A stretch of DNA of 64,000 nucleotides from Escherichia coli (GTDB taxonomy: Bacteria > Pseudomonadota > Gammaproteobacteria > Enterobacterales > Enterobacteriaceae), in NCBI RefSeq assembly GCF_003019035.1, contig NZ_CP027447.1. One strand, 5' to 3'. This document shows, piece by piece, positions 2,935 to 31,412 of this stretch (position 1 is its first letter; each line of letters begins with the position of its first letter). The position numbers and the translations under genes were made by a program. The notes below the pieces were generated by a model. The model worked only from the letters and a program-made list of their open reading frames with translations. It was not told the origin of the DNA and ran no database searches.

Positions 2935-3825
2935 ATGAACATGAAAAAACTGGCTACCCTGGTTTCCGCTGTTGCGCTAAGCGCCACCGTCAGTGCGAAT
3001 GCGATGGCAAAAGATACCATCGCGCTGGTGGTCTCCACGCTTAACAACCCGTTCTTTGTATCGCTGAAAGATGGCGCGCAGAAAGAGGCGGATAAACTTG
3101 GCTATAACCTGGTGGTGCTGGACTCCCAGAACAACCCGGCGAAAGAGCTGGCGAACGTGCAGGACTTAACCGTTCGCGGCACCAAAATTCTGCTGATTAA
3201 CCCGACCGACTCCGACGCAGTGGGTAATGCTGTGAAGATGGCTAACCAGGCGAACATCCCGGTTATCACTCTTGACCGCCAGGCAACGAAAGGTGAAGTG
3301 GTGAGCCACATTGCTTCTGATAACGTACTGGGCGGCAAAATCGCCGGTGATTACATCGCGAAGAAAGCGGGTGAAGGTGCCAAAGTTATCGAGCTGCAAG
3401 GCATTGCCGGTACATCTGCAGCCCGTGAACGTGGCGAAGGCTTCCAGCAGGCTGTTGCTGCTCACAAGTTTAATGTTCTTGCCAGCCAGCCAGCAGATTT
3501 TGATCGCACTAAAGGTTTGAACGTAATGCAGAACCTGTTGACCGCACATCCGGATGTTCAGGCTGTATTCGCGCAGAATGATGAAATGGCGCTGGGCGCG
3601 CTGCGCGCACTGCAAACTGCCGGTAAATCGGATGTGATGGTCGTCGGATTTGACGGTACACCGGATGGCGAAAAAGCGGTGAATGATGGCAAACTAGCAG
3701 CGACTATCGCTCAGCTACCCGATCAGATTGGCGCGAAAGGCGTCGAAACCGCAGATAAAGTGCTGAAAGGCGAGAAAGTTCAGGCTAAGTATCCGGTTGA
3801 TCTGAAACTGGTTGTTAAGCAGTAG
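2935..3825 (+). CDS. rbsB: ribose-binding periplasmic protein
   Basis: ORF track starts at 2929 (MNMNMKK); the recalled protein starts MNMKKLATL with a signal peptide, so start placed at 2935. Confidence 0.92.
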
Positions 3826-3950
3826 TTTTAATCAGGTTGTATGACCTGATGGTGACATAAATACGTCATCGACAGATGAACGTGTAATATAAAGAAAAGC
3901 AGGGCACGCGCCACCCTAACACGGTGGCGCATTTTATGGACATCCCGAAT

Positions 3951-4883: not shown

Positions 4884-5876
4884 TTGGCTACAATGAAAGA
4901 TGTTGCCCGCCTGGCGGGCGTTTCTACCTCAACAGTTTCTCACGTTATCAATAAAGATCGCTTCGTCAGTGAAGCGATTACTGCCAAAGTTGAAGCGGCG
5001 ATTAAAGAACTCAATTACGCGCCATCAGCTCTGGCGCGTAGCCTCAAACTCAATCAAACACATACCATTGGCATGTTGATCACTGCCAGTACCAATCCTT
5101 TCTATTCAGAACTGGTGCGTGGCGTTGAACGCAGCTGCTTCGAACGCGGTTATAGTCTCGTCCTTTGCAATACCGAAGGCGATGAACAGCGGATGAATCG
5201 CAATCTGGAAACGCTGATGCAAAAACGCGTTGATGGCTTGCTGTTACTGTGCACCGAAACGCATCAGCCTTCGCGTGAAATCATGCAACGTTATCCGACA
5301 GTGCCTACTGTGATGATGGACTGGGCTCCGTTCGATGGCGACAGCGATCTTATTCAGGATAACTCGTTGCTGGGCGGAGACTTAGCAACGCAATATCTGA
5401 TCGATAAAGGTCATACCCGTATCGCCTGTATTACCGGTCCGCTGGATAAAACTCCGGCGCGCCTGCGGTTGGAAGGTTATCGGGCGGCGATGAAACGTGC
5501 GGGTCTCAACATTCCTGATGGCTATGAAGTCACTGGTGATTTTGAATTTAACGGCGGGTTTGACGCCATGCGCCAACTGTTATCACATCCGCTGCGTCCT
5601 CAGGCCGTCTTTACCGGAAATGACGCTATGGCTGTTGGCGTTTACCAGGCGCTGTATCAGGCAGAGTTACAGGTTCCGCAGGATATCGCGGTGATTGGCT
5701 ATGACGATATCGAACTGGCAAGCTTTATGACGCCACCATTAACCACTATCCATCAACCGAAAGATGAACTGGGGGAGCTGGCGATTGATGTACTCATCCA
5801 TCGGATAACCCAACCGACCCTTCAGCAACAACGATTACAACTTACTCCGATTCTGATGGAACGCGGTTCGGCTTAG
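4884..5876 (+). CDS. rbsR: ribose operon repressor (LacI family)
   Basis: 330 aa with N-terminal helix-turn-helix ([17 protein letters not shown]); TTG start codon at 4884. Confidence 0.9.
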
Positions 5877-7269
5877 ATTTACGCTGTCTTTTGATCAAAT
5901 TATTACCATCGGTTGTTTTCAGAAGCATGAACATTGCTGCTGAAGCAACAGTAATAATGCCCATCGTGATAAACGTATAGTGGAATTGTTCGACAGTCGT
6001 TGTGCCTTCCATCCCTTCATAAACGCGAAGGACGGCCGCACTTACAGCAACGCCTAAACTGATAGACAGTTGCTGCGTGACCGCCAGAACACTGTTACCG
6101 CTGCTGGCGTTGTCATCGGTCAGATCGGCAAGTGTGATGGTATTCATCGCGGTAAATTGCGTCGACATAGCCATCCCTAATATAAACAACGGCAAGATCA
6201 GCATCCATATCGCCATTGCCGGTGATTGCAAAGAGAACTGAGCGATCATTAGCCCAATAATCACCGTGATCCCAACTAACGTATGGCGATAGCCCAGACG
6301 ACGTAAGACTTGGGTAACCATCGATTTTGCAATAATGGAACCTAACGCTGTCGGTGCCATCATACAGCCGGCAATAAACGCCTGATAACCAAATCCTACC
6401 TGTAACATCAATGGCATAAGGAACGGTACACAACCGGTCCCCAGACGGGTTGCAATATTGCCTACGATACCGATCGAGAAAGTGCGGGTTTTAAATAAAT
6501 CTAATGAAATTAATGGGTTTGGCGTGCGTCGTGCATGGAGAATATAGAGAAGCAGTAACCCGATGCTGGTGACAATTACCGTCAAGGCAATCCAACTGGC
6601 GACAATCTTTTCCCCAAATAGCTCTATTCCGCTTGAGAAGAGAACAAGGCTAAGGCCAAACAGCAAAAAGCCAGTGATATCGAATCTGCGTCGTGCGGTG
6701 GTGAAATTGGGCATATGTTTGCGCGCGTAAAGAAGGCCCGCAATACCTATGGGGATATTGATTAAAAATATCCAGTGCCAGGTTGCCCAGGTGACCAGCA
6801 CGCCGCCAAGAACGGGGCCTAAAATTGGCCCCACCAGACCCGGCATGGCGACAAAATTCAATACAGGAAGAAGCTCATTACGAGGATAAGCGCGCAGTAA
6901 GGCCAGCCGAGCAACAGGCATCATCATTGCGCCGCCTATCCCCTGAATAACCCGGAAGACAACCAGCTGTGGTAGCGAGTTAGAAAGTGCGCAGGCCAGA
7001 GAACCCAACGTGAACAGACTCACGGCAAGGGTAAATATGCGACGCGTACCGAAGCGATCGGCTAGCCATCCGCTTACCGGAATAAGCATCGCCACCGTCA
7101 GCGTATAACTGATGATGGCTGATTGCATCGCGAGAGGAGAACGATTAAGGCTATGAGCGATTGCGGGTAAGGCGGTATTCAGAATAGTGGCATCAAGTGC
7201 CTGCATGAAGAAGGCCATCGCCGCGATCCACGGCAAACCCGCCATACTGCGCTTCTTTTTATCGCTCAT
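5842..7269 (-). CDS. hsrA: MFS family efflux transporter
   Basis: 475 aa multi-helix membrane protein; position between rbsR and yieP matches hsrA (yieO); 3' end overlaps rbsR convergently. Confidence 0.85.
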
Positions 7270-7291: not shown

Positions 7292-7984
7292 TCACTTATC
7301 AGGTGAGCGTAGCAGCGCCTGACAAGCTTTAAATGCCGCGTCGCCATCGCTTTGGATAATCGCGTCAACAATCGCCTGGTGCAGATCCAGCTTTATCACT
7401 GTGTCGCTGGTAATTGACGTGAAGTAAGTGTGATAAACCGAATGGAATAGCGAGGCGAATGAGGTCAAAAACGGATTGGCGCTCATTTCATAGATATGCT
7501 CATGCCAGGCCATATCGACTTCGATCCAGCGTTCACGGCGAAAGTTCTCTTTTAATGCCGCCATTTCGGCCATTAACGTATTGAGATGCGCCTTCTGTTC
7601 CGCGGTGCCAACCGTTGCTGCCAGTAGGCAAGCTTGCGGCTCCAGACAGATACGCATAACCAGAAAGTGATCGATGACCTGATGAAAGTTCTCTTCTGTC
7701 ATCCACCAGGTAAGCAATTCCTGATCAAGAAAATTCCAGTTTGATTGTGGCATGACCCGGGTACCAATTCGCGGTCGCGGTAAAACCATCCCTTTTGCCG
7801 TTAACGTTTTGACCGCTTCGCGTACCGCTGTACGACTCACTCCAAATTGCTCGCCCAGCTCAATCTCACCAGGCAAAATGGTGCCGGGTTCATATTCACC
7901 TTTTAAGATGCGTTGCGCCAGCTTCTCAGCCAGAACATACGAAAGGTTTTTCTGTGCAGCTAACTGTTGTGCGCTTAAAGGCAT
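7292..7984 (-). CDS. yieP: GntR/FadR family transcriptional regulator
   Basis: 230 aa; N-terminal winged helix motif (GEQFGVSRTAVREAVKTL); position immediately upstream of the rRNA operon. Confidence 0.85.
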   Translation of the reverse strand: MPLSAQQLAAQKNLSYVLAEKLAQRILKGEYEPGTILPGEIELGEQFGVSRTAVREAVKTLTAKGMVLPRPRIGTRVMPQSNWNFLDQELLTWWMTEENFHQVIDHFLVMRICLEPQACLLAATVGTAEQKAHLNTLMAEMAALKENFRRERWIEVDMAWHEHIYEMSANPFLTSFASLFHSVYHTYFTSITSDTVIKLDLHQAIVDAIIQSDGDAAFKACQALLRSPDK

Positions 7985-26932: not shown

Positions 26933-27871
26933 TTACTGTAATTGAGTTTGCTGGATCAAGATTTCAACTTGTGACTGGCGAGGAATGGGGGCAACTGCGC
27001 CATAACCGGTTGTTGTCAGCGCAGCGGCGGCGTTGGCGTAGCACAGCGCCTCTTCCGGCGAATCACCTTTGATAATGCGGTAAAGAAAAGCACCCGAGAA
27101 GCAGTCCCCAGCCCCGGTCGCGTCGACGGTGGCGACTTTATGGCCAGAGTAGATGATTCGCCTGTTCTCATTGGCGAACATCGCGCCTTCCGCACCCATT
27201 TTTAACACCACATTCTTTGCCCCGAGCTGGAGATAGAAATCCGTAATTTCATCTGCATGATGCTTCCCGGTTAGCAAACGGGCCTCATCGAGGCTAGGCA
27301 TGCAGTAATCTACGTGGCGTATTGTTTCATGGATGATGGCGCGGGCGCGGGCTAACGGCCACAGTTTGAGCCGCAGATTGGTGTCGAAGGAAATCAGCGT
27401 TTGGTGCTTTTGGCACAGTTCAATAGCGTGAAAAAGCGCATCACTGACGTTATTGCCAATGGCGTGCGTGATGGCCGAACTGTGAAATAAGCGCGCGGCG
27501 GCAATCGCGGACTCATTGATATCATCGACCGTCATCGTAGAGGCCGCAGAGCCTTTACGATAAAAGGTAAAGTGGTGGCCTTGTTCATTGTGAGAAATAA
27601 AATAGATCCCCGTCGGGGCCATTTTATGCGTGCAAACCCATTGATGATCGACCTTTTCTTCATCCCATAATGCGCGGAATTTCTGCCCAAATATGTCGTC
27701 GCCAAGTCGGGTTAACATAGCAACTTTAGCGCCTTGTCGCGCCGCGCTAATGGCGAAATTCGATGTATCACCGCCAAATCCGCTGAGATAATGCTGCTCA
27801 GAATGCTCTGTGGGAAGCTGATTGAATTCAAAAAGCGGCTCACCAAATGAAAGAATATCGAACTGCTTCAT
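26933..27871 (-). CDS. PfkB family carbohydrate kinase, 2-dehydro-3-deoxygluconokinase-like (accessory cluster)
   Basis: ORF 26933..27904; likely start MKQFDIL at 27871, preceded by GGAGAA; PfkB motifs GG (SGFGGD) and VDATGAGDCFSGAF. Confidence 0.8.
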   Translation of the reverse strand: MKQFDILSFGEPLFEFNQLPTEHSEQHYLSGFGGDTSNFAISAARQGAKVAMLTRLGDDIFGQKFRALWDEEKVDHQWVCTHKMAPTGIYFISHNEQGHHFTFYRKGSAASTMTVDDINESAIAAARLFHSSAITHAIGNNVSDALFHAIELCQKHQTLISFDTNLRLKLWPLARARAIIHETIRHVDYCMPSLDEARLLTGKHHADEITDFYLQLGAKNVVLKMGAEGAMFANENRRIIYSGHKVATVDATGAGDCFSGAFLYRIIKGDSPEEALCYANAAAALTTTGYGAVAPIPRQSQVEILIQQTQLQ

Positions 27872-27936
27872 TACGTTCTCCATGTGATAGTCTAGGCTCG
27901 CCATCGGCCAGATTGGCTGATGGCGGCATAGGAAGG

Positions 27937-28593
27937 TTAGATTCGGCCGTATTTCGCCAGGCCTTCACGCAGAGAACCAGACTGTATAATCAGTTTGGCC
28001 TGTTCCAGCTCGCGGCTATCAATGGATTGTGCCAGTGCTAATACTTCTGCTGCGACCGCCTGCGGTACGCACACCACGCCGTCGATATCCCCGACAATCA
28101 AATCTCCCGGATTCACCGTGACATCGCCGATGGTGACGGGCTGATTGGCTGAAATTGTTTTGAAACGACCAAGCGTAGTGCCTGGGGTTACCGTTTTGGC
28201 GTAAACCGGGAAATCGTAATCGCGACGGATCTCCGCCAGGTCACGTACGCCGCCGTTCAACACTGCAGCTTCATGTTTATTGGCAACAGCCCCGGCGGTC
28301 ATTAGCCCGCCCCAGACGGCAACGGTTTCCAGCGACGGATTTCCGGTAATGACGATGACCGAACCGCTGGCGGATTCGTCAATGGCGTCCAGCGCATGCT
28401 GCGGTGGCAGTTTTTCGTCAGTGACGTCTTCATAAATGGTGACGGCCGGGCCAACGATTTTTTTGTCGTTGATGCGGTTTTTGATTTCAAAAGGCAGGAA
28501 CATCGTTTTGCCCAAGATCTGATCGCAGGCGTCAGCGACAGAAGCGGTCGAAAAAATAGTGCGAAAACCGTCGATAATATTTTTGCTGTACAT
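27937..28593 (-). CDS. RraA family protein, probable class II 4-hydroxy-2-oxoacid aldolase (accessory cluster)
   Basis: ORF track is N-extended; the internal start MYSKNIIDGF at 28593 has a GAGGAA ribosome-binding site; about 218 aa; family assigned by overall resemblance, not by search. Confidence 0.7.
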   Translation of the reverse strand: MYSKNIIDGFRTIFSTASVADACDQILGKTMFLPFEIKNRINDKKIVGPAVTIYEDVTDEKLPPQHALDAIDESASGSVIVITGNPSLETVAVWGGLMTAGAVANKHEAAVLNGGVRDLAEIRRDYDFPVYAKTVTPGTTLGRFKTISANQPVTIGDVTVNPGDLIVGDIDGVVCVPQAVAAEVLALAQSIDSRELEQAKLIIQSGSLREGLAKYGRI

Positions 28594-28624
28594 AACTCTT
28601 CCTCTCTTTATAGCGAATACTAAT

Positions 28625-29584
28625 TTATGGATTAACCCAATTAAGCGGATGCTCGCCTTCAAACGCCCGACGCACTTCATGCGCGGCTTTACTTTGCAAC
28701 TCGACCACCGACTCTTCGGTAAACCAGGCGGTGTGGTCCGTACATAAGGTGTTATCCATTTGCAGCAATGGACTTTTTGCACTGAGGGGTTCGGATTCAA
28801 AAACGTCGAGTCCGGCGGCGAAAATGCGCTTTTGTAGCAGGGCGTTGATCAGCGCCTGCTCATCGATAAGCCCGCCGCGTGAGGTATTGACCAGTACGGC
28901 GCTGGGCTTCATTTTGGCCAGTTCGGCTTCACCGATAAGATGATGGGTGTCCGGGGTTAGCGGGGCGTGAAGAGAAATGAAGTCCGCTTCACGGCACAGC
29001 GTATCGAGATTGACTCGCGTCACGCCTGCTTGTGAAGCCTGTTCATCGGTAAGTAGCGGATCAACTACCAGGATGCGCTTAAAGCCGAACCCTGATGCTT
29101 TTTGTACAAAGCAGCGGGAGATCCGGCCAAAACCGACGACGCCGAGAATTTTTCCCGCCAAGCGGAACATAGGTTCGCGCTGGCCAATTCCCCACTGACC
29201 ATCGCGAACATCACGGTTGCGGGTGGCGATACGGCGTGTTGCGGCCAGTAGTAACGCCAGAGCGTGCTCAGCAACATCTTCCGAGCCGTAGTCTGGTACG
29301 TTAGCGACGTAAATACCTTTTTCTTTGGCGGCCTGGCTATCGATATTGTCTACACCGACGCCATAGCGCACGATAACGCGGCATTGCTGCATCGCTTCAA
29401 TCATAGGGCGACTGACGGTTGCTTCGCGGACCATGATGGCGTCAGCATTGCTTACCTGGCGCAGTTTTTCTTCCAGTGAAGCGTTTGCTGGAACAACAAC
29501 AAACTGCGGATCCCAATCCTGTAAAATATTTTCTTCTGCAGAATAATTTAAATATCCAGGTTCAATAACTACTATTTTCTTCAT
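28625..29584 (-). CDS. D-isomer-specific 2-hydroxyacid dehydrogenase, NAD-binding (accessory cluster)
   Basis: 319 aa; Rossmann motif GVVGFGRIS; family resemblance to glycerate/hydroxypyruvate reductases. Confidence 0.8.
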   Translation of the reverse strand: MKKIVVIEPGYLNYSAEENILQDWDPQFVVVPANASLEEKLRQVSNADAIMVREATVSRPMIEAMQQCRVIVRYGVGVDNIDSQAAKEKGIYVANVPDYGSEDVAEHALALLLAATRRIATRNRDVRDGQWGIGQREPMFRLAGKILGVVGFGRISRCFVQKASGFGFKRILVVDPLLTDEQASQAGVTRVNLDTLCREADFISLHAPLTPDTHHLIGEAELAKMKPSAVLVNTSRGGLIDEQALINALLQKRIFAAGLDVFESEPLSAKSPLLQMDNTLCTDHTAWFTEESVVELQSKAAHEVRRAFEGEHPLNWVNP

Positions 29585-29699
29585 AATATCTACCGTTCTT
29601 AATTATAAAATTAAGTGTTTTAATTTCTACGGCTGTAGTTCGCCGCATCCTGAAAACAGAATGTGAAATTAATGAATGTTTTGTTTGTGGTTTATATCA

Positions 29700-31037
29700 T
29701 CACAGAGTAACGGGTTTGGCGTCCACGATAGCTATATTCTTTAACCAGCGGACAATTAATATTGTGACGATCCCGCCGATTAGCATAACCGCGCTTAAAT
29801 ATAACATCGGTGCCGAGTCGCTTTTTTCTAAATCACGTACCAGAGGGATGGTGTTTTGCGCGAAAAACCCCCCCAGATTTGCCAGTGAATTAATAATAGC
29901 AATGCCTGCAGCCGCCGTTGCGCCTGAAAGAAATTTCGTTAAATTCCAGAAGCAGGGTTGAATTGCAAATACTGATAATACAACGCCGCAAATACAGATG
30001 AAGCTAATAACCGGCTGGGCGAATGTCCAGACCGAGAGCAGCAGACATATTGCAGCGGTGAACATAGGTAATGCGACATTAATATAAGGATTCTCGGTAC
30101 GTTCTGGCTTACTGGTTATCCAGCGCAGCATGATGATAACCATCGCCCATGGGATCATATTGACCAGACCATTCATCATATCCGAGGCACCGAACGTTTT
30201 AACAATAGTTGGCATCCAGTAGCTGATACCGTAGGCACCAAAGCAGATGAACCCGTATACCAGCGCGAGGGCCAGAACACGCCAGTCGGTCAGCGATTTA
30301 CCCAGGCTATTGACCGATTTATCGGTGTTGGCATCCTGTTCGGCGGCCAGTTTTTTAATCAACCAGCTCTTCTCTTCCGCATTCAAGAAGCGAGCCTGTT
30401 CCGGTCCTTGCGGAAACCATAGCAGCACTGGGGCAATCAGCAGAAGTGCAAGCACCCCCGTCGCCAGGAATAACCACTGCCATCCTTCCAGCCCCATAAA
30501 GCCGTGCATGCTAAGCAGTGAGCCGTTAATTGGGGCACCAATCATATTTGCCACCATGCTGGCGGTGACTAAAAAGCCGACAATACGTGGACGATACTTT
30601 AAAGGGAACCATTTGGTAGAATAGTAAATTAGCCCAGGGTAAAAGCTGGCTTCGGCAACACCAAGAATAAAACGCAAAGTATAAAATGTTGACATTTTTT
30701 CGGTCCACGCCAGCGCCATAGTAATAACTCCCCATGACAACAGGCTAATAGTGAACCAGCGTTTAGCACCTACCTTCGATAAAATTAAATTTCCGGGAAC
30801 GCTAAAAACCAAATAACCGATGAAAAAAAGTGATGCGCCGAGGCCAAAAGCTGCTTCACTCCAGCCCAGGCTGTCTACCATTTGTAATTTAGCAAAACTG
30901 ATATTCTGACGATCTATATACGCCACGATGTACATCAATACCATCAGTGGAACAAGTTTCCTGGTTGTTTTTGTTACAATGATTTTTTCTAAATCATTTT
31001 TTGCATCCAGGGACTGTTGCTGTATTGAATGACTCAT
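29700..31037 (-). CDS. MFS transporter, anion:cation symporter-like (accessory cluster)
   Basis: ORF 29700..31103; likely start MSHSIQQQ at 31037; about 12 predicted helices; motif YIDRQNISFAK typical of organic-acid and sugar-acid permeases. Confidence 0.8.
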   Translation of the reverse strand: MSHSIQQQSLDAKNDLEKIIVTKTTRKLVPLMVLMYIVAYIDRQNISFAKLQMVDSLGWSEAAFGLGASLFFIGYLVFSVPGNLILSKVGAKRWFTISLLSWGVITMALAWTEKMSTFYTLRFILGVAEASFYPGLIYYSTKWFPLKYRPRIVGFLVTASMVANMIGAPINGSLLSMHGFMGLEGWQWLFLATGVLALLLIAPVLLWFPQGPEQARFLNAEEKSWLIKKLAAEQDANTDKSVNSLGKSLTDWRVLALALVYGFICFGAYGISYWMPTIVKTFGASDMMNGLVNMIPWAMVIIMLRWITSKPERTENPYINVALPMFTAAICLLLSVWTFAQPVISFICICGVVLSVFAIQPCFWNLTKFLSGATAAAGIAIINSLANLGGFFAQNTIPLVRDLEKSDSAPMLYLSAVMLIGGIVTILIVRWLKNIAIVDAKPVTL

Positions 31038-31161
31038 AACACGTGTTTCCTGAATAAAGTCATAAGATCTGGCGCTCGTCCTCACACCATTGCACGGAGA
31101 CAAGATTTTGTCTGCATAGAGACGCCGTTGTTTTAGCCAGTTGAGATATTATTACCTAAAC

Positions 31162-31412
31162 TGACATGTCACAAAGATATCACTCATTTTTTATGTGGCG
31201 ACAGGATGTGTAAAAACTTGCCGCTTTGATCACAATTAATGGCGATAAAAGTGCTTTTTAGTGTGATGCTTGTCACTAAAAAATGGGATGAATAATCTTT
31301 TTTGACATGTCAGATTTGGGGTTTGTGAATGCAATAAATCACACTGTTGCAGTGGGTTGGCGCGTTAATCATGGAATAAAGGATATTTTTTTATAACTAA
31401 CATGTCAGATTG
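31162..31412. promoter_or_regulatory. leader of the accessory cluster with three copies of the palindromic motif ACATGTCA (two are the perfect 10-mer TGACATGTCA)
   Basis: TGACATGTCA at 31162-31171 and 31303-31312; TAACATGTCAGATT at 31399-31412; all upstream of the MFS start at 31037. Confidence 0.5.

Follow-up and report, generated by a model that had tools for sequence, protein, structure and literature searches.

The ribose repressor gene rbsR and the transporter gene hsrA of Escherichia coli meet tail to tail, and we consider it very probable that the 35-bp overlap of their coding sequences is an old, long-fixed overlap of two real genes, arisen by a frameshift that extended hsrA. The overlap itself is already known: it is annotated, and it is catalogued as a convergent excludon pair. 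What is added here is threefold. First, a probable history can be given for the overlap, namely that hsrA was extended by a frameshift in one clade, within which one branch later lost the rbsR stop. Second, a graded series of junction forms (a gap, then overlaps of 4, 9, 24, 35 and 53 bp) exists within one family, with a small, measurable cost at the silent sites of rbsR where the overlap is long. Third, since the family has no spacer between the two genes, the transcripts have to overlap at any length of the coding overlap.

Features are given in coordinates of the window, by which we mean the whole 64,000-nucleotide stretch of E. coli DNA that was analysed (table 1). As read from the ORF list and the raw sequence, the 35 bp count both stop codons. 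They hold the last 11 sense codons of rbsR, the first of these only in part, and the rbsR stop; read antisense, they hold the last 10 sense codons of hsrA, part of the eleventh, and the hsrA stop. In the raw sequence rbsR ends CAA CTT ACT CCG ATT CTG ATG GAA CGC GGT TCG GCT TAG, and the TTA at 5842–5844, complemented, is the TAA stop of hsrA. Position 3 of each rbsR codon is position 2 of an hsrA codon, position 2 is position 3, and the first positions coincide. Since the wobble base of rbsR is thus the middle base of an hsrA codon, a change that is silent in rbsR invariably alters the HsrA tail.

Table 1. Coordinates, in the window, of the genes and features at the rbsR–hsrA junction.
Feature	Position	Strand	Details and basis
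rbsR CDS (ribose operon repressor, LacI family, 330 aa)	4884..5876	+	TTG start, TAG stop 5874–5876; ORF list, NCBIfam, annotation
hsrA (yieO) CDS, DHA2-type MFS transporter, 475 aa	5842..7269	−	TAA stop 5842–5844; ORF list, NCBIfam, annotation
yieP, GntR/FadR-type regulator, upstream gene of the yieP–hsrA operon	7292..7984	−	ORF, NCBIfam, annotation; operon per PMC11340327
35-bp dual-coding overlap of rbsR and hsrA	5842..5876	both	ORF list and raw sequence
Lineage-specific HsrA C-terminal extension	5845..5877	−	C-terminal tails of 38 loci; junction DNA, frame difference

Both members of this convergent overlapping pair are real genes of recognisable families by NCBIfam. The RbsR equivalog covers residues 1–330 of the 330 of the rbsR product (697 bits), while HsrA matches the MdtD subfamily at 458.6 bits (cut-off 426) over residues 13–465 and also the DHA2 model TIGR00711. 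The gene names, coordinates and 35-bp convergent overlap offered by the sequence-only reading are correct by the ORF list, the raw sequence and NCBIfam. It had added that an earlier stop in either hsrA or rbsR would remove the overlap; such a stop was looked for in the ORF list and the raw sequence and rejected, since neither gene has one in frame, and the overlap stands. In the E. coli genomes listed, the NCBI pipeline (PGAP) names the gene at 5842–7269 ‘mdtD: multidrug transporter subunit MdtD’; its K-12 name is hsrA, a putative transporter. The gene properly called mdtD is part of the mdtABCD operon elsewhere, and the automatic name is misleading for hsrA.

How general is the arrangement within the species? 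The sequence-only reading took it to be probably the standard one at this locus and proposed a comparison with K-12, and the annotation of K-12 MG1655 together with some 5,400 E. coli genomes bears this out. In MG1655, rbsR (b3753) lies at 3938227–3939219 (+) and hsrA (b3754) at 3939185–3940612 (−), with the same genes, the same stop codons and an identical annotated overlap of 35 bp. K-12 HsrA is 100% identical to that of the window, and RbsR is identical save at its first codon, a TTG start that tblastn renders as Leu (99.7%); there is no difference of substance. Of 5,426 complete E. coli genomes, 5,416 contain a match to a 1-kb probe. A shorter probe, of 95 bp with the junction in its middle, finds 95–100% identity in 5,413/5,426 of them, is at least 80% present in 5,392/5,426, and reaches at least 99% identity in 3,850. 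We conclude that the overlap is real but ordinary, the reference arrangement of the species, already in the annotation and the catalogue.

Strain SCU-301 matches the window at 100% over the 1,001-bp probe, and its annotation (rbsR, ‘mdtD’, yieP) again gives an overlap of 35 bp. The same strain carries a five-gene block between ppiC and ilvC (18945–23900 in locus L083, which by computed mapping is 26327–31282 of the window), made up of an MFS transporter, a C-terminal binding protein, an RraA family protein, a sugar kinase and a GntR regulator. We take this block to be absent from K-12, and it may be a strain-variable sugar-acid utilisation island.

The practical consequence of the layout is that a change made in the final 11 codons of rbsR is at the same time a change in hsrA, and the reverse holds too; a genome-reduction paper has the deletion of the rbs region truncating hsrA. 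In strain WY517-2 a 15-bp in-frame deletion within the overlap, at window positions 5844–5858 (locus L084, 2451–2518), changes both proteins: it takes out RbsR residues 321–325 and the hsrA stop, leaving an RbsR of 325 aa, an hsrA product of 486 aa and an overlap of 68 bp. This is either a natural double-hit variant or an assembly error. The annotation at the locus is confirmed, and beyond such housekeeping its importance is small.

What form does the junction take in other species? The comparison rests on an HsrA scan of species-representative genomes, from which the best 80 of 446 HsrA relatives were used, deeper taxa lying outside the sample; with the window these give 81 loci, all in the Enterobacteriaceae. 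Every one of the 81 loci (the best 80 of 446 plus the window) has the two genes converging and directly adjoining, from which it follows that the abutment is not chance. The forms of the junction are listed in table 2. A long overlap is kept in relatives as the 35-bp form in 35/81 loci and as the 53-bp form in 5/81, the rest having shorter overlaps or gaps of 2–3 bp. The 4-bp form also occurs in a few loci named ‘Enterobacter sp.’.

Table 2. Forms of the rbsR–hsrA junction among 81 Enterobacteriaceae loci (the window and the best 80 of 446 HsrA relatives).
Junction	Loci	Genera
53-bp overlap	5	Lelliottia, Huaxiibacter
35-bp overlap	35, including the window (34 others)	Escherichia, Salmonella, Citrobacter, several Enterobacter, Leclercia, Intestinirhabdus
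24-bp overlap	1	one Kosakonia
9-bp overlap	6	mostly Kosakonia
4-bp overlap	26	Raoultella, Pluralibacter, Franconibacter, Yokenella, Trabulsiella, Buttiauxella, others
2–3 bp gap	8	Kluyvera, Phytobacter

One record in this sample, titled Chryseobacterium sp. 18061 (L035, CACSKA010000004.1), bears a typical Enterobacteriaceae hsrA–rbsR locus. This locus is closely like that of Citrobacter sp. 18056 (L027), a record of the same project, and agrees with it in coordinates and junction type; the Chryseobacterium record is probably mislabelled or a contaminated assembly. Most draft contigs among L003–L082 end about 1 kb upstream of hsrA, which fits assembly breaks at the rRNA operon (rrnC in K-12) just past yieP.

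Which of the two genes moved? The C-terminus of RbsR, ...QLTPxLxxRGS[A/V], falls at an identical position in 76 of the 81 loci (the best 80 of 446 and the window). As the variable partner it is therefore rejected, its end being fixed in these 76 and longer, by 6 residues, only in Lelliottia and Huaxiibacter; in this 53-bp group the rbsR TAG is lost and RbsR gains SAGGDL. The end of HsrA differs from form to form. In the short forms it reads ...DGRNLIKE(R/K)H(K)(x), without an extension, and in the 35- and 53-bp forms KPxxxPSExE is added (C-terminal tails of 38 loci), so that HsrA is some 10 residues longer in the Escherichia/Salmonella/Citrobacter/Enterobacter group. The junction DNA shows that the frame of hsrA relative to rbsR differs between the 4-bp and the 35-bp forms, and in the junction alignment the spacing from a conserved Lys codon to the rbsR stop is off by one base between E. 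coli and Yokenella.

These observations suggest the following history. In the likely older state, rbsR and hsrA would have abutted in a 4-bp double stop of the TTAA/CTAG type common to both, or would have lain 2–3 bp apart. In the ancestor of the Escherichia–Salmonella–Citrobacter and Enterobacter–Leclercia–Lelliottia lineages the frame of hsrA would then have shifted relative to rbsR, on the simplest reading of the junction alignment through a one-base indel just outside rbsR. Carried off the double stop, hsrA would have read 31 nt more, antisense through the last rbsR codons, until rbsR codons Leu320–Thr321 (CTT ACT) supplied a new TAA. The product would be a short cytoplasmic tail on HsrA, rich in Pro, Ser and Glu, with a sequence set mostly by the conserved end of RbsR. 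Loss of the rbsR stop would be a later step, taken in a sub-clade after the extension of hsrA. We infer the direction of the frameshift and its single origin from the genera that carry each form, taken by genus name rather than from a rooted species tree. In random sequence, a change of frame would be expected to lengthen an ORF by roughly the 10 codons seen.

If hsrA is read through the end of rbsR, the silent sites of rbsR should feel it. Among the 35-bp species, synonymous codon diversity at rbsR codons 320–330 is 0.276, against 0.436 in the rest of the gene (p=0.018); in the 40 short-overlap species it is 0.508 in the same zone and 0.453 in the rest (p=0.80). Parsimony counts, made on a neighbour-joining tree built from rbsR itself and with groups defined by the trait under test, give 4.0 synonymous changes per codon at codons 320–330 of the 40 long-overlap species versus 7.27 elsewhere (Mann–Whitney U p=0.0055), and 9.44 versus 8.76 in the 40 short-overlap species (p=0.67). 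Synonymous changes in rbsR are thus about 45% rarer inside the overlap in the long-overlap clade, and only in this clade; in the long-overlap species 2.1% of other 11-codon windows of rbsR are as low. The test comprises 9 informative codons in related sequences, and we regard it as modest, suggestive evidence of a dual-coding constraint on the silent sites of rbsR. Individual codons can be followed in the 35-bp loci. Leu320 is CTT or CTC in 35 of 35, either of which keeps a TAA or TGA for hsrA; Thr321 is ACT in 34/35, Val323 is GTT in 32/32 and Ser329 is TCG in 33/35. Genuine dual-coding sequence usually leaves a signature of this kind at synonymous sites, and it argues modestly for an HsrA tail that is translated and whose end point is kept. 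We infer that the tail is translated, and tail and stop together would mildly constrain the wobble positions of rbsR.

Might the 10-residue extension have been selected for a function of its own, such as stability, sorting or regulation of the transporter, with the overlap as the price? The extension and the position of its stop are kept in all 40 long-overlap species, the P, the P-S-E and the terminal E of the tail are largely conserved, the rbsR wobble bases that set tail residues are near-invariant (the ACT, GTT and TCG codons above), and synonymous change is lowered only where the overlap is present. Yet variation is free at half of the tail positions (N/T/S, R/P/H, V/A, Q/S/P), and the P of the P-S-E motif is imposed by the RbsR Met325 codon. 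The tail is lacking in many genera, other lineages have unrelated tails (KKSG, RKSGGTARH), the sample is small, and the tail holds no known motif. We think it unlikely that the tail is adaptive.

How do the two transcripts end? None of the 81 loci (the best 80 of 446 and the window) has room for an intergenic terminator. With no spacer in any species examined, neither transcript can end at such a terminator; and because even the relatives with a 2-bp gap lack the room, overlap of the transcripts does not depend on the length of the coding overlap. An intrinsic or bidirectional terminator at the junction was also considered and rejected, as the terminator scan found none in or within several hundred bases of 5842–5876, and 200-nt folds over the junction show no gain in stability over shuffles on either strand (z −0.16 and −0.36).

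Published maps of 3' ends offer another route. When 3933343 is subtracted to convert K-12 coordinates to those of the window, a Rho termination region at K-12 3938923 (−), labelled ‘antisense rbsR’, falls at window 5580 (Rho score 2.78, significance 7.6e-6; Adams et al. 2021 eLife, PMC7815308, supplementary file 2). The peak lies 262 nt past the hsrA stop, in a map of coarse resolution (scores from 800-nt windows) and at low read counts (102/32 vs 164/143) in one growth condition, LB (PMC7815308). The supplementary tables of the same paper contain no curated Term-seq 3' end near the stop of rbsR or of hsrA and, for the LB culture, list no Rho region or 3' end on the + strand downstream of rbsR (PMC7815308). 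A full-text literature search on rbsR and Rho-dependent termination returned nothing relevant to the locus. The transcript of yieP–hsrA, which form an operon (PMC11340327), would on this basis run into rbsR antisense. The ribosome would leave at the hsrA stop, and Rho would load on the untranslated antisense-rbsR RNA and stop the transcript a few hundred bases on. The rbs operon transcript would likewise have to enter hsrA antisense, and the ends of rbsR transcripts presumably lie within it. Expression of the rbs operon in LB is expected to be low.

Candidate signals of termination also lie further from the junction. The terminator scan found a perfect 8-bp hairpin at window 4957..4978, 74–95 nt into rbsR. 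On the minus strand the hairpin is followed by CTTTATTGAT, and it is terminator-like for any hsrA read-through that reaches it. A plus-strand Term-seq 3' end at K-12 3938325, window 4982, coincides with this hairpin (PMC7815308, supplementary files 1 and 3), and a Rho termination region lies at K-12 3938387, window 5044 (Rho score 3.77, significance 1.4e-13; PMC7815308). Hairpin, 3' end and Rho region together suggest premature termination inside rbsR, a gene with a TTG start. The sRNA RbsZ, annotated in K-12 and derived from the 3' end of rbsB, occupies 3702–3935 of the window; its terminator is unchanged there (match at 3903–3939), and no other Term-seq signal listed for the rbs operon is as strong as that of its 3' end (PMC7815308).

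If the transcripts overlap, does the overlap serve regulation? ExcludonFinder (Sanmartin et al., NAR 2025, PMC12288877) names rbsR–hsrA (Table 1) as one of 165 convergent pairs for which 50% or more of 58 MG1655 transcriptomes show overlapping transcripts; the paper gives no evidence of opposing expression for rbsR–hsrA specifically (PMC12288877). Overlap of these two coding sequences entails overlap of their transcripts, and for any pair of this kind the ExcludonFinder call is close to automatic. The sequence-only reading held that the overlap ‘allows’ transcriptional interference or antisense effects. Taken as a possibility, this fits the published data, both the ExcludonFinder listing and the Rho region antisense to rbsR, and it is as a possibility only that a regulatory consequence can be spoken of.

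A stronger proposal is that the convergent layout without a terminator has been kept because overlapping transcription sets the ribose operon and its repressor against yieP–hsrA, which may occur by collision of polymerases or by RNase III cleavage of an RNA duplex. The abutment is indeed kept in all 81 loci (the best 80 of 446 and the window) and in many genera, the pair is one of the 165 convergent MG1655 excludons (PMC12288877), an intrinsic terminator is lacking, and hsrA transcription runs antisense into rbsR for some 260 nt or more before Rho intervenes (PMC7815308). On the other hand, the listing follows automatically where coding sequences overlap, the antisense read-through is limited by Rho and represented by low read counts, and the literature searched yielded neither anticorrelated expression nor a phenotype for rbsR–hsrA. 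The length of the overlap varies freely, from a 3-bp gap to 53 bp, the 35 bp themselves not being conserved, and synteny of neighbouring operons can last without function. Moreover, of the six convergent pairs in this 50-kb region two overlap in their coding sequences, ilvY/ilvA by 4 bp and rbsR/hsrA by 35 bp, so that the layout is not rare locally. That regulation has kept the layout seems to us distinctly unlikely; mutual interference, if true, would add one more case to a class already described. Still more doubtful is the combined proposition that the junction is a selected device coupling the ribose regulon and its repressor to the YieP–HsrA efflux operon by collision or RNA duplex, with the HsrA tail and stop under purifying selection.

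That one gene end is simply misannotated, with no true overlap of translated sequence, is close to refuted: although the HsrA tail is known from sequence and the match to the HsrA family model stops at residue 465, neither frame has an earlier stop, the RbsR model matches through the last residue, the gene ends are conserved across species, a dual-coding signature is found, and the curated K-12 annotation is identical.

How does the rbsR/hsrA overlap compare with known arrangements? Bidirectional intrinsic terminators also serve convergent pairs with short spacing, but rbsR/hsrA is unlike these in having no GC-rich hairpin flanked by A and T runs in or near 5842–5876. In classical excludons the overlap lies in long UTRs and expression is mutually exclusive, whereas in rbsR/hsrA the coding sequences themselves overlap, and the overlap of the transcripts is taken from a published listing. 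The nearest local counterpart is ilvY/ilvA, whose 4-bp overlap lies at 26497–26500 of locus L083, or 23727–23730 of the window, a position computed by mapping from SCU-301. This pair is convergent without intergenic space, like the 4-bp rbsR/hsrA form of other genera, but unlike rbsR/hsrA in the window its overlap consists of stop codons only and encodes no antisense protein tail. The general class to which rbsR/hsrA corresponds is that of tail-to-tail overlaps produced by loss of a stop codon or by frameshift, in which a short 3' overlap forms as one ORF is extended to the next stop in the antisense frame of its neighbour. In that class, as here, the end of one partner is kept and the tail of the other varies. 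The rbsR/hsrA junction is better documented than most of its class, since a gap and overlaps of 4, 9, 24, 35 and 53 bp are found in one family, together with a measurable drop in synonymous change.
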